64,000 nt of DNA from an uncultured Eubacteriales bacterium (GCA_900314525.1 OMVN01000008.1:2721-66720), one strand, 5' to 3'. Shown: positions 18,456-22,713, counted from the stretch's first letter. Numbers and translations are program-made. Notes: generated from the sequence alone by a model not told the origin.

Positions 18456-20694
18456 ATGGATATGACAGCACTTTCTAGTGGATCATCAGATAATGTTTTG
18501 AAGAAGATTGATGATGTAATTAATAAACTTGATGGAATGCCAAAGACAAAGGATACAGAGAAGGCGTTATCTGATTTGAAAATCGCAGCGGAAATTATAA
18601 ATCAAAATAAGGATGCATATGAATTTTGCAAAGATGAGATGAATGGACATGATAAATATGTTGTTGAAAAGGGTTCTGACTGCATTGATAAATTGGCAAC
18701 AATTGTTTCTTCTGTTGATACAATGGTAAATTCAATTAATTCTGATAATGCCAGCTATGCTATTGCATCATCAGAATTAACTCGTGCAGTAATTGGGGAA
18801 ATGAAAAATGGAGAGTATATATATGCAATTTCAAAAAATCCTCAGATGAGTGATGATGAATTTGAAAAATCTAATGTTAAATTTGAAATAGATTATAAAT
18901 ATGCATATGTAGAATCAGGATTATATGCATTTTATGCTAGTGCAAACTTATATGGATTTTTAAGGGAGAACTTAATTCTCTTAAGGATAGAATTTCTAAG
19001 GGAGCAGATGCTCTTGATGTAGCTACCAGTGAAGTTTCACTAATTGTAGACATTTATGACGGTGTTAAAAATGGCTGGAGTATAGAAAAGGCAGGACAGC
19101 TAGTAAAAGATGGAGTATCTTTCGGCAACAGTGTAGTTAAGTTTGCAGGAAAAGAGGGATTGTCATCGACTGCAATAGGTAATATTGAAAGTATAATTGA
19201 TGGATCATGTGACATGATAAATGGGTTGAAGCAGAAAAAGCTGTGAGAAAGGTAGATCCTGTAATATTTGATCTTAACAGTGCTGGAAAATATGCTTCAA
19301 ATATTGCTGATGGAGTATATTTTGATTACGATGGTGATGGATTTAGGGAGAAAACAGCATGGGCAGATAAAGAAGACGGTATTCTTGTTAGGGATATTAA
19401 TGAAAATGGATTCATAGATGACGGAAAAGAACTGTTTGGGGATAAAACTGTACTAAAATCAGGTGAATATGCAAAATCTGGATTTGAAGCATTAAGTGAA
19501 CTTGATACAAATAGTGATGGTAAGATAACAAATGATGATGAAGCATTTAAAGAATTAAAAATTTGGATTGACAGAAATAATGATGGAATTTCCCAAAGTG
19601 ATGAGTTATATACACTTGATGATAAAAACATTGCAGAGATTGATTTAAATTTTAAATCGTCTAATAGGAATGATCAGAATGGAAATATTATAAAAAACAC
19701 GTCAAATTATGTAAATAAAGATGGAATAGTCGGAAATGTTGCTGAAATGAACTTTACAATTGATTCAATGGATACTGTATATCAGGAAAATACAGAAATT
19801 GAAGATGAACTTGTGAAAGATATTCCAAATATTAAAGCTAGTGGAGAGATGATTTCACTGAGAGAAGCTGTTTATAATAATCCAAAATTAGGTGAGAGCG
19901 TAAGAAAATACATATCTTCTACAAATGAAGCTGAAAGAAATGAATATTTAAATAAAATTATAATTCAGTGGACTGGTTGCGAAAATATTGAAGATGGAAG
20001 TAGAGGAGACAATTTTAATGCAACAAAACTTGCTATTTTAGAGAAATTCTACGGAAGATATTTTGAAGGTGTTGCTGGAAGAAATCCAAATGCAGAAGCT
20101 GCACCTATTTTGGAAAATATGTATGCAAAACTTTTAAATAATTTAGGAAACGCCCTGCTAATAGATGATACAATTTTAAATAATCTATTAGCACTTACAA
20201 TTACTACAGAGATTGATGGAAAGAAACAGATAAATTACAATATGGTATGCAGTTATCTGAATATGAATAATGCGTCAGATGCAAGTAAGGCATTTTCAAA
20301 AAATCGTGACTTTGTTAACGTGATTGAAATGATGAAATTAAATAAAATTTATGGATTTAACGAAAATGACACTCTTAATGGAAGTTCGAGAGACGAACTA
20401 GTATTTGGTGGTAGAGGAGATGATATATTAAACGGAGGAACCGGAAATGATCTTGTTATAAGCGATGGTAAAGATGGAAATTTAGTTATAAAAGAGTGGT
20501 ATTAATCTGATGATAATAAAATTGAAACTATAAATACAGCTGATGGATATTCAATCACTAATGCCCAGTTACAGCTTATGATTGATAGCATGGCAAGTTT
20601 TGGAACTGATGATGCCATGTCACAGGATATAGCTGCTAATTCACAAACAATGCAAAAGAGTGAGTTGATGTCTCAGTTCTGGACAAAAAAATAG
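18456..20694 (+). pseudogene. Disrupted RTX-type Ca-binding protein with FrpC-like self-processing module
   Basis: Three consecutive pieces in different frames: 18456-19022; about 18959-19246; and 19213-20505 plus an in-frame tail to 20694 after TAA at 20503-05. Contains DP-x-IFDL, YFDYDGDG, DINENGFIDDGKELFG, EF-hand-like DTNSDGKI and DRNNDGIS, GGRGDDILNGGTGND nonapeptides and a C-terminal IDSMASF. Confidence 0.75.
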
Positions 20695-20748
20695 TTTAGG
20701 GAAGTATTAATAAAAAATTATAATAGAAAAATTATAGATACGAAACTA

Positions 20749-20778
20749 TTGACCCAAAACAATATTAGGTAGTAAAAT
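20749..20778 (+). promoter_or_regulatory. Possible SigA promoter of the 143-aa hypothetical gene
   Basis: TTGACC-18 bp-TAAAAT, with RBS AGGAGG before the ORF. Confidence 0.45.
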
Positions 20779-20809: not shown

Positions 20810-21241
20810 ATGGTTATGGGATTTTTTGGAGATTTATTTAAAAAAGAAGCAGGTAAAATGGTTTCTGATTTTGTAGGAGATATTACAAATGTCAATAAGA
20901 CTGAAAAATTTAATCCTGCAAAACAGTCAAGACAAGATGTAATAGACAGAACAAAGAAAGTTTTGGAAGAAAATTTTTCTGAATATATAGTTTACAATAA
21001 TATTGAACCGGGTCAGTTTGGTAATTTCTATGGTGGCAGAAATTACGATTTTGTATTATATGATGGCAGTGCAAAGAAGTTAGCTATATTGGTGCTTTCA
21101 GGACATAATGATTATGGATGTAAAGCTGTTAGAATTTCAAAAGAAGCTGCAACGGAAGAGGGAATTAAATGCATTAATATTATGTCATATCTTCCAAGTA
21201 CATATGATTATATAAAAGCAAGAATACAAGAAAATCTGTAA
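20810..21241 (+). CDS. Hypothetical protein (possible restriction-endonuclease-like/DUF2726-like alpha/beta fold)
   Basis: Strong RBS, 143 aa. YDFVL...KLAILVL pattern and a C-terminal YDYIKARI helix; the fold assignment is inference only. Confidence 0.65.
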   Translation: MVMGFFGDLFKKEAGKMVSDFVGDITNVNKTEKFNPAKQSRQDVIDRTKKVLEENFSEYIVYNNIEPGQFGNFYGGRNYDFVLYDGSAKKLAILVLSGHNDYGCKAVRISKEAATEEGIKCINIMSYLPSTYDYIKARIQENL

Positions 21242-21259
21242 TATTCTGACATATATTTG

Positions 21260-21450
21260 ATAAAACAGAAAGCGGAATGTGACAAATGTTACGCCTGCTA
21301 AGGACGAAGCATATTATTTTTTAAGCTTTGCAGGTTGGCTATAATATGTAAAGTCTAGTGTGATAAGCATAGCTTTATCACTTCAAAGCGTTTCCGAATT
21401 CTTTTTATAACTATAAGGCTGTCTTCTGTCTTAACAGGAGATAGCCTTTT
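21260..21450 (+). ncRNA. Putative structured non-coding RNA upstream of the RT
   Basis: Hairpins at 21278-93, 21294-334 and 21360-81, enclosed by long-range pairing 21260-77 with 21392-408, then a 14-bp hairpin at 21415-48 plus TT. No family recognised. Confidence 0.45.
21415..21450 (+). terminator. Terminator-like hairpin immediately upstream of the RT gene
   Basis: AAGGCTGTCTTCTG-TCTTAA-CAGGAGATAGCCTT, ending in a TTTT run. Confidence 0.6.
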
Positions 21451-21495
21451 AGAATATAAAGGTTAATTAGAAATGAAATTTAGAACAAGAAAATT

Positions 21496-22713
21496 TTGGG
21501 AGAAATTATGAAAATAATAGATTCAATTACAGATAAAAATGAGTGGCTAATGTATTTACAACATAAAATAGATGGGGAAAATATAAGGCGAGAAGAAAGA
21601 AAAAAACTGGAGAGATATATAAAAGAAGAGAAATATACATATCTTAAAGATAAAATTACAGAGGGTGAATTTTTCTCAGCACTACCGGTTAAAAAGATGG
21701 TTAATAAAGAAGGGTCAAAAAAGAGCAGGGTGGTTTATTCATTTGAAGATGAGATAAGTATTCCGCTTAAATTTATAGCTTTTAAACTCCACAAATATGA
21801 CAATAGACTTTCAGATAATTGCTATTCTTTCAGACAGGGTTATGGCGTTAAAAATGCAATCAATAAGATAAAGAGGAATAACAAAATAAAAAGTATGTTC
21901 TGCTACAAGATTGACATAAGCAATTATTTTAACTCTATTGACCCAGATACCTTGTTAGATAGAATTAGTTTTCTAAAGGAAGAAGATGAAGAAATATATA
22001 GATTATTTAGATCTATGCTTTTAAATAATAATGTTGTAGTTAACGGTAGTATTATATCAGAAAATCATGGAGCGATGGCAGGAATACCTGTGTCACCTTT
22101 TTTTGCCAATTTTTATTTGGCAGAATCGGATAGGAAATTTCAGGATGCATTATATTTCAGGTATTCTGATGACATTATTATTTTTGCTGAGAGTGAAGAG
22201 GAATTAGACAAATATAGAAAAATTCTTAGTGAAGTAATATATGAATCAAAGCTTAAATTTAATTACGATAAAGAAATAATTGCTAATCCACTAGATAAAT
22301 GGGAATTCCTGGGATTTTCATATGATGATGGTATTATAGATATTTCAGAAAATACAAAGAGAAAAATAAAATCTAAGATAAAGAGGAAAGCGGATGCACT
22401 AAGAAGATGGCAGAGAAAGAAAAATCTTACAGAGGACAAGGCAGCAATTGGATTTATTAGATCTATGAATTATAAGTTTTTTGGAGGTGGTGAAGAAGAT
22501 GAATTTACTTGGAGCAGATGGTTTTTTGGAAACATCAATACAGATAAGAGTTTAAGGGAAATTGATTCATATATGCAGGAGTATATAAGATACATAATTA
22601 CGGGAAGACATTATAAAGGTAATTATAGAATCAAGTATGAGACGATGAAAAAATGGGGATATTTAAGTCTTGTGAATGAATACTATAAAAGGCAGAAAAA
22701 CTCTGTATTTTAG
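21496..22713 (+). CDS. Orphan group-II-like reverse transcriptase
   Basis: KxxGxKxR (RT1/2), YSFRQG, KIDISNYFNSID (RT3), GAMAGIPVSPFFANFYL (RT4), RYSDD (RT5), EFLGF (RT7), thumb/X-like C-terminus. Likely start is ATG 21508 after GGGAG. Confidence 0.9.
   Translation: MGEIMKIIDSITDKNEWLMYLQHKIDGENIRREERKKLERYIKEEKYTYLKDKITEGEFFSALPVKKMVNKEGSKKSRVVYSFEDEISIPLKFIAFKLHKYDNRLSDNCYSFRQGYGVKNAINKIKRNNKIKSMFCYKIDISNYFNSIDPDTLLDRISFLKEEDEEIYRLFRSMLLNNNVVVNGSIISENHGAMAGIPVSPFFANFYLAESDRKFQDALYFRYSDDIIIFAESEEELDKYRKILSEVIYESKLKFNYDKEIIANPLDKWEFLGFSYDDGIIDISENTKRKIKSKIKRKADALRRWQRKKNLTEDKAAIGFIRSMNYKFFGGGEEDEFTWSRWFFGNINTDKSLREIDSYMQEYIRYIITGRHYKGNYRIKYETMKKWGYLSLVNEYYKRQKNSVF

Follow-up and report, generated by a model that had tools for sequence, protein, structure and literature searches.

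A conserved, pseudoknotted RT-5 RNA and its candidate role beside a UG26-type reverse transcriptase

The spacer between a small gene and a reverse transcriptase (RT) gene in a 64,000-nt stretch of DNA from an uncultured Eubacteriales bacterium holds a real, conserved and pseudoknotted RNA of the RT-5 family on the + strand at about 21260-21408 (positions refer throughout to the whole stretch, which we call the window). The locus is a typical RT-5/UG26 cassette of a kind that is already catalogued, and the function we propose for it is a candidate one. Both the RNA family and the RT group were known before, and the UG26 RT most likely binds the RNA and copies it. We add here the helix coordinates, the pair counts on 78 homologues including the pseudoknot, an extra tertiary pair and the variability of the spacer and terminator, together with a template prediction that we infer from position. 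UG26 is a Class 2 UG/Abi group for which the literature searched holds no published RNA, product or function, and its relatives DRT2, DRT9 and DRT10 each brought a new way of making DNA. That literature, DRT11-14 included, contains no characterisation of either UG26 or RT-5. By itself the window is one more ordinary member of the UG26/RT-5 system; with its 77 relatives it provides a parts list consisting of a partner protein, a 149-nt pseudoknotted RNA, a 401-aa RT and a template prediction. At about 1.9 kb the cassette is small, and it is common among gut and rumen Lachnospiraceae, which makes it a practical choice for heterologous testing.

Identification of the RT-5 RNA

Window 21289-21394 on the + strand matches Rfam RT-5 (RF03026) over the entire model (positions 1-104 of 104) with 59.5 bits and an E value of 2.6e-10. 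This score exceeds the RT-5 gathering score of 45.7 bits and corrects the earlier note on this DNA, which had recognised no known riboswitch or 6S pattern in the spacer. A covariance search of the whole 2.36-Mb genome located RT-5 as a single copy, with the same score as in the scan of the window. Our own covariance model of the extended RNA, R1, matched window 21252-21417 with 142.5 bits (E 4e-28). The RNA lies between the small partner gene and the RT gene, both of which are also on the + strand. The same arrangement of RNA and RT, with RT-5 upstream of the RT gene and on its strand, was found in the window and at 77 of the 80 other loci. The cassette has three parts, a small protein, the RNA and the RT, and the protein precedes the RNA in most loci. 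The features of the locus are as follows.

20749..20778, + strand: promoter-like site before the small gene (TTGACC, 18 nt, TAAAAT), from a consensus scan only
20816..21241, + strand: small partner protein, 141 aa from the second ATG, with an earlier start at 20810
21260..21408, + strand: complete conserved ncRNA, about 149 nt, made of the RT-5 core, the outer helix and the 5' hairpin
21415..21448, + strand: local 15-bp hairpin (21415-29 with 21434-48) with a poor U tail
21508..22713, + strand: UG26 RT, 401 aa, with YSDD and a GGGAG ribosome-binding site at 21498-21502

Comparative evidence for the RNA structure

We assembled 80 genomic loci of Lachnospiraceae type, which together with the window gave 81 sources. 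Rfam detected RT-5 upstream of the RT gene in 19 of the first 20 loci, and reading the sequences of these first loci revealed conserved flanks that extend beyond the Rfam model. R1 was built from 17 aligned sequences (alignment A2) and a written structure, and was used to search all 81 sources. It matched at E <= 1e-15, on the + strand and just upstream of the RT gene, in 78 of them; two of the three sources lacking a match contain no upstream sequence. The proposal in the earlier note of a discrete structured ncRNA tied to the RT is borne out, and covariation was observed in every helix.

The complementary segments listed in the earlier note are all present in the window, and covariation across homologues, which that note had named as a check, was abundant. 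In the 78-sequence alignment, 97.3% of the cells are paired, as compared with 47-56% when the partners are slid against each other; 41 of the 51 pairs carry compensatory changes, and none of 500 shuffles reached the observed values. Because this alignment had been fitted to the nested helices, the count was repeated on an unfitted MAFFT alignment of 17 sequences, where 94.9% of the cells are paired (46-55% for slid partners) and 27 of the 51 pairs are compensatory. A mutual-information scan recovered every helix, and one isolated pair in addition. All eight helices, the pseudoknot included, therefore covary.

Folding energies gave more modest support. For the 153-nt core (21258-21410) the folding energy is -37.7 kcal/mol and the z score -2.35; 3 of 200 shuffles were as good. 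The opposite strand of the core reached -28.7 (z = -1.62). A longer segment, 21242-21508, has a z score of -5.46, which it owes mostly to the 15-bp hairpin at 21415-48. The minimum-energy fold of the single sequence recovered the outer helix P0 and hairpin P2; the conserved form of the middle part was not recovered. Thermodynamics alone thus lends modest support to the structure, and the comparative evidence is decisive.

Anatomy of the RNA

The elements of the RNA in the window are listed below, with pairing percentages from the 78-sequence alignment.

21260..21277, + strand: 5' strand of P0, purine-rich, paired with 21392-21408
21279..21292, + strand: hairpin Pa, GUGAC-AAAU-GUUAC, with 5/5 pairs compensatory and 99.5% paired
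21293..21298, + strand: 5' strand of the pseudoknot, GCCUGC, paired with 21330-35
U21299-A21351, + strand: tertiary pair, isolated and covarying, with A21351 in the 3' internal loop of P1
21302..21356, + strand: P1, a long hairpin of three segments, the first hairpin of the Rfam consensus
21302-05 with 21353-56, + strand: P1a, 100% paired
21309-16 with 21342-49, + strand: P1b, 98.4% paired
21324-27 with 21337-40, + strand: P1c, 93.5% paired
21317..21323, + strand: asymmetric internal loop of P1, UUUUUUA, on the 5' side; second template candidate
21330..21335, + strand: 3' strand of the pseudoknot, GCAGGU, in the apical loop of P1
21360..21381, + strand: hairpin P2, strands GTGATAAGC / GC(T)TTATCAC, with a bulged U at 21374 and the loop AUA
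21382..21391, + strand: single-stranded junction from P2 to the 3' strand of P0, UUCAAAGCGU; best template candidate by position
21392..21408, + strand: 3' strand of P0, pyrimidine-rich with a U run at the end; helix 1 of the covariation analysis

The long-range helix P0, which the earlier note had drawn between 21260-77 and 21392-408, is real. It has 15-16 bp, of which 15 were scored; 96.4% of the cells are paired and 11 of the 15 pairs changed on both sides among the homologues. The window contributes G-C/C-G variants of its own at 21273-75 with 21394-96. The first hairpin of that note, GTGAC/GTTAC (21279-83/21288-92), likewise covaries in all five pairs and corresponds to Pa, with whose 3' half the Rfam RT-5 model begins.

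The next element had been read as a plain hairpin closed by CCTGC (21294-98) and GCAGG (21330-34). The pairing itself stands and covaries; the plain hairpin does not: nucleotides in the apical loop of P1 bind the segment immediately 3' of Pa and form an H-type pseudoknot. The proposed AAG/CTT extension is not conserved and clashes with the conserved P1a and P1c. The pseudoknot is 99.5% paired in the 78 sequences, with compensatory changes at four of its six pairs, even though it was absent from the model used to build the alignment; one position, for example, occurs as G-C in 36, A-U in 24 and G-U in 4 sequences. The strict motif GCCTGC...TTGCAGG matches only one of the 80 homologues because the pseudoknot covaries. 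The isolated pair from the mutual-information scan (columns 54/205) is GC in 66, CG in 7, AU in 2, UA in 2 and something else in 1 of the sequences. At this tertiary pair the window, like one other sequence, carries UA and so is a compensated variant.

Within P1, 12 of the 16 pairs of the three segments are compensatory. The third hairpin of the earlier note (21360-68/21372-81) was recovered as P2 (helices 7-8), whose nine pairs are all compensatory and whose two helices are 94.6% and 97.1% paired. The consensus hairpins P1 and P2 taken together are 93-100% paired with 21 of 25 pairs compensatory, and the unfitted MAFFT alignment agrees. The internal loop of P1 varies in both sequence and length (6-13 nt in most homologues of alignment A4), and in some homologues (e.g. 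L009, L045, L056 and L069) its place is taken by an additional hairpin, which can reach about 40 nt. About 12 homologues have an insert of 20-40 nt with its own hairpin between P1b and P1c, carriers being L009, L007, L045, L056, L066, L069, L079 and L080; the apical region of P1 thus accommodates large expansions without loss of the pseudoknot strand.

The junction between P2 and the 3' strand of P0 is the most conserved unpaired stretch, with the consensus cTTCAAAGc, and reads UUCAAAGC. The loop UUUGCGGG is also very highly conserved. In six or seven homologues the apical G-C pair of P2 is replaced by A-U, and in all but one of these the G of AAAGC in the junction has changed to U. This site comprises columns 230/237/258 of alignment A4 (G21367, C21373 and G21388 in the window) and could reflect either a base triple or the shared ancestry of one clade. 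Two further pairings were considered and dropped, one between the 3' strand of P2 and AAAGC of the junction and the other between CAAAG and the loop YUUUG. In both cases the partners are near-invariant, and the few variant clades compensate inconsistently.

Spacer, downstream hairpin and promoter signals

At the homologous loci the stop codon of the small gene usually lies 10-30 nt before P0, and the distance from the RNA to the RT gene ranges from 15 to 526 nt (median 56). In about 30 loci this spacer is shorter than 40 nt, with a ribosome-binding site directly after P0 and no room for a hairpin. A minority of loci have a strong hairpin or a clear intrinsic terminator there (e.g. L016, L047 and L034). 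The terminator-like hairpin of the earlier note is indeed present in the window, with 15 bp at 21415-48, and a terminator scan of the window did not call it. Since the spacer varies so widely and the short-spacer loci lack a hairpin, this hairpin is a local feature outside the conserved element. Two spacers were unusual. The 526-nt spacer at L038:1357-1871 contains several strong hairpins and possibly an extra small ORF, and the spacer at L010:2862-3000 (Acetatifactor muris DSM 23669) has three near-tandem copies of a GC-rich sequence (CCGTTTTCGGCG...) that is not found in the other loci.

The promoter-like site at 20749..20778 is a possible candidate for an operon promoter, as judged from its match to the consensus; such sites are no commoner in the window than expected from shuffled sequence. 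In the homologous upstream regions, P0 is preceded at a distance of 5-12 nt by a weak A/T-rich signal resembling TAtaaT (0.3-0.6 bits per position); a -35 element was not found there.

The reverse transcriptase and the partner protein

The downstream gene is, by profile comparison, a full-length UG26 RT of Class 2 UG/Abi. It matched the PADLOC model RT_UG26 with 514.3 bits (E 4.6e-155) over model positions 1-397 of 398, far ahead of the next-best PADLOC RT profiles, the generic PDLC01136 (107.9 bits) and UG4 (107.6 bits). Among the PADLOC models of RT groups with a described mechanism, UG17 (DRT10) was the best after UG26 with 98 bits; DRT9 (UG28) scored 78 bits and DRT2 (UG2) 53 bits. Pfam found RVT_1 only and no fused known domain. 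In the RT alignment S220, D221 and D222 of YSDD are invariant. Relatives of the RT number 1836 proteins at E <= 1e-20, mostly from Lachnospiraceae and with about 55% identity. The motif-4 region (window 22069-22100) has GAMAGxP where a PQG-type motif is usual; G188, A189, M190, A191, G192 and P194 are invariant in 25 of 25 aligned UG26 RTs (alignment A1), and a search with the GAMAGxP peptide as a pattern retrieved 196 relatives. Two other kinds of RT-bearing element were dismissed. No group II intron family appeared among the Rfam matches even at E <= 10, with RVT_1 as the sole Pfam match, and the 12 kb around the RT held only short chance repeats of 67-76% identity, which does not fit a diversity-generating retroelement.

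In the 78 RNA-bearing sources, 70 ORFs were found immediately upstream of the RNA, and 67 of these 70 belong to the family of the small partner protein. The protein consists of an N-terminal helix with MGFF..KKEA (MGFL-D-LLKKEA in the family), a variable linker and a C-terminal alpha/beta domain. No sequence match was found in Pfam or the PDB. The AF2 model has a pLDDT of 83, exceeding 90 for residues 39-141, and its top Foldseek matches are of PD-(D/E)XK type, all of them weak (E >= 0.055): VRR_NUC 4qbl (E 0.055, probability 0.91), a tRNA-splicing endonuclease and EcoT38I. The PADLOC model RTasCOG2852 matched 15 of 52 family members weakly, with 1.7e-5 at best; the protein in the window matched with its N terminus only (E 0.0045). 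The family alignment contains no invariant D, E or K, and what is conserved are tyrosines and hydrophobic residues. We read the protein as a putative nuclease-derived binding module rather than an active nuclease.

Genomic setting and distribution

RT-5 was found in 18 of the 150 sampled genera of the family, with one copy each, a patchy distribution that fits an accessory cassette of the defence type. The neighbours in the window are housekeeping genes, namely carB, a GNAT gene, a parE/parC-type topoisomerase, a transporter, an amylase, and fol and phe genes. The cassette is accordingly not in a defence island, which counts against the mechanism proposed below. A tblastn search with the RT in phage and plasmid collections returned no match.

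Some neighbourhoods recur or are peculiar. At two Acetatifactor loci (L020:43-402 and L021:4271-4659) no more than about 1.3 kb separates the cassette from the RNase P RNA gene, and at L013 (2079-2152) it adjoins a tRNA gene, so the vicinity of these RNA genes may be a recurrent insertion neighbourhood. In the window, an upstream gene for an RTX-repeat protein (19243-20697) is broken by an in-frame TAA at 20503-05, after which the frame continues for 63 codons (SDDNKIETINTADGYSIT...); either the gene is a pseudogene, or the stop is a sequencing error or is read through.

A candidate mechanism and its alternatives

The identity of the RNA and of the RT, the structure, its covariation, the gene order and the patchy distribution were observed. 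We propose, with moderate confidence, that the RT-5 RNA is a dedicated ncRNA partner of the UG26 RT, serving as both its scaffold and its template for the synthesis of tandem-repeat cDNA against phage. That the RT binds the RNA and copies it, which stretch it copies, what product results and that this product serves defence are drawn by analogy with DRT2, DRT3, DRT9 and DRT10. In all characterised Class 2 systems (DRT2, 3a, 9 and 10), a cis-encoded RNA templates iterative reverse transcription. According to this proposal, the UG26 RT would bind the RT-5 fold as a ribonucleoprotein and copy over and over a short unpaired template between two stems, for which the P2-P0 junction at 21382-91 is the most likely site. 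UUC opens the junction and recurs at 21392-94, which resembles an A-B-A' arrangement; once a round is complete, GAA at the end of the cDNA would re-anneal to this next UUC. The product would be a tandem-repeat cDNA with a 10-nt unit in the window, which might act against phage together with the small partner protein.

The junction is the best template candidate because its position matches that of the DRT10 template and because the templates of DRT2, 3, 9 and 10 are strands between anchored stems. In DRT10 the RNA has 137 nt and forms a large stem decorated with smaller stem-loops, the template comes right after the last stem-loop near the 3' end, and the cDNA is reset on a second copy, further downstream, of the bases that open the template (A-B-A') (bioRxiv 10.1101/2025.10.16.682844). 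More generally, DRT2, 3, 9 and 10 copy a short unpaired strand that lies between two stems anchored on the RT (10.64898/2026.06.29.735271). That UUCAAAGCGU in particular is copied into a 10-nt unit is nevertheless a tentative prediction, rather more apt to fail than to hold, because the microhomology is nearly unavoidable, the conservation could mean recognition and the P1 loop is also legal. The A-B-A' microhomology has no power to tell the template candidates apart, since the U/C-rich strand of P0 makes repeats of 2-3 nt almost inevitable. The junction is far more conserved than the DRT10 templates and could instead be a motif for protein recognition or tertiary contact. The variable internal loop of P1, for its part, is an equally legal single strand between two stems.

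We also looked for the predicted product in sequence collections. Tandem copies of the predicted cDNA unit gave at least 120 matches in metagenome contigs, all of which were generic short tandem repeats within ordinary contigs (soil, marine and other samples) unconnected with the RT-5 system. The genome of the window itself contains no tandem copies of the unit. A 10-nt complement of the 3' strand of P0 downstream of the RT gene (repeat I3) was dismissed, about 70 such chance matches being expected in 12 kb.

A bolder form of the proposal, which is speculative and which we hold to be rather unlikely, is that UG26 and RT-5 constitute a telomerase-like defence system copying the junction, UUCAAAGC plus 1-3 nt, into a tandem repeat that would be near-identical across hundreds of gut Lachnospiraceae. 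The pseudoknot and the tertiary pair would then act as the template-positioning core, in which they would resemble that of telomerase RNA, and the tyrosine-rich, catalytically stripped nuclease-fold protein might read, bind or prime the repeat.

Two alternatives accept the RNA as an RT partner and differ from our proposal in the template. The RNA might be a scaffold, sensor or regulator rather than a template, for example one that keeps the RT or the small protein in check until infection occurs, with the DNA being untemplated or templated otherwise. The conservation of UUCAAAGC and of the loop UUUGCGGG would fit motifs for recognition or tertiary contact, Class 1 UG/Abi RTs synthesise DNA without a template, and the small protein has conserved tyrosines without catalytic acidic residues; however, UG26 groups with Class 2, whose characterised members all template on their cis-encoded RNA, and we consider this alternative unlikely. 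A template in the internal loop of P1 (UUUUUUA, 21317-23) would yield lineage-specific repeats and, in the window, an A-rich product. This loop is single-stranded, framed by P1b and P1c and as variable as the DRT10 template loops, and its U run recalls the poly-U template of DRT9. Such an assignment sits badly with the hairpin inserts of 20-40 nt in about 12 homologues, given a fixed template window, and the position differs from that of the DRT10 template; we regard it as more improbable still.

The other two alternatives give the element a different identity. The earlier note had offered an attenuator reading. In a broader form of it, the element would be a leader, attenuator or processing signal that governs expression of the RT gene in cis, with the 21415-48 hairpin as its terminator, and the RNA would lack a function of its own. 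The RNA does end 15-30 nt before the RT start in many loci and is part of the 5' UTR of the RT there, and the window has a strong hairpin in between. Attenuation, however, needs a conserved terminator, and neither a conserved terminator nor an antiterminator pairing was found among the loci with their variable spacers, of which about 30 leave less than 40 nt between RNA and RT. The fold of 149 nt, with its tertiary pair and a pseudoknot that covaries, also goes far beyond what an attenuator needs, and TATAAT at 21340-45, previously taken as the start of such a leader, belongs to the 3' strand of the covarying helix P1b and is not a promoter. This makes a leader very unlikely. A retron msr/msd, for which the earlier note saw a resemblance of P0 to the a1/a2 arms, would require a branching G that primes 2'-5'-linked msDNA and copying of P1. 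Terminal inverted repeats do close a multi-hairpin RNA directly upstream of the RT gene, and Weinberg 2017 speculated that many RT motifs are retrons. The resemblance turned out to be geometric only, as the RT scores 514 bits on UG26 and at most 61 bits on the retron-type PADLOC models. In structural comparison, group II intron RTs come out ahead of retron RTs, whose matches lie at 1e-9 to 1e-19. No retron type has this gene order or this partner protein, and the loop of the would-be msd hairpin is sequestered by the pseudoknot, so that we consider a retron exceedingly improbable. Our preferred reading thus remains an RNA that would both scaffold and template the UG26 RT.

Comparison with known systems

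RT-5 was reported by Weinberg et al. 2017 (PMC5737381), who remarked only that it accompanies RT genes and surmised that many motifs of this kind might be retrons; Rfam assigns no function to RT-5 (RF03026). The RNA in the window has the same nested hairpins P1 and P2 and the same place beside an RT gene as the Rfam family. It is longer than the Rfam model by the covarying 15-bp P0 and by a full Pa, of which the model contains the 3' half only, and its pseudoknot and tertiary pair lie outside the nested consensus as shown by cmscan.

UG26 was described by Mestre et al. 2022 (PMC9226505) as a Class 2 UG/Abi group of 35 members, nine of them next to a COG2852-like gene, and that study reports no ncRNA and no functional test for UG26. 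The RT in the window matches this group from end to end, sharing the stand-alone RT domain, and the small partner may correspond to the group's occasional COG2852-like neighbour, whose model 15 of the 52 partner proteins match weakly. In contrast to those 35 members, nine with a partner, more than 1800 proteins were found here, and hardly any locus of our Lachnospiraceae set lacks the partner or the RNA; conserved catalytic residues are missing from the partner.

The likeness to a retron msr/msd is confined to geometry, with terminal inverted repeats (the covarying P0) closing a multi-hairpin RNA upstream of the RT gene; the RT clade, the partner protein and the pseudoknotted RNA fold all differ. 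DRT9 (UG28) and DRT2 (UG2) are, like the UG26 system, Class 2 RTs with an upstream structured ncRNA. The RNA of DRT2 is pseudoknotted as well, and the template of DRT9 is conserved in sequence like the RT-5 junction. These two systems belong to other RT groups, and the RT-5 family has no long poly-U tract in common.

DRT10 (UG17), in which an ncRNA, a SLATT protein and an RT carry out telomerase-like synthesis of tandem-repeat cDNA (bioRxiv 10.1101/2025.10.16.682844 and 10.64898/2026.06.29.735271), offers both likenesses and differences. The RT group is not the same (98 bits on UG17 versus 514 on UG26), the gene order here is protein-RNA-RT instead of RNA-SLATT-RT, and the partner here is predicted to be a soluble nuclease-fold protein, whereas SLATT is a membrane protein. 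RT-5 is pseudoknotted, while no pseudoknot of the DRT10 RNA is described in the text searched, and the candidate template of RT-5 is highly conserved in contrast to the variable DRT10 templates. Common to both are a three-part cassette and a cis-encoded RNA of about 140-150 nt with a closing stem that bears smaller stem-loops, and RT-5 has a single-stranded stretch after its last stem-loop, precisely where the template of DRT10 sits.
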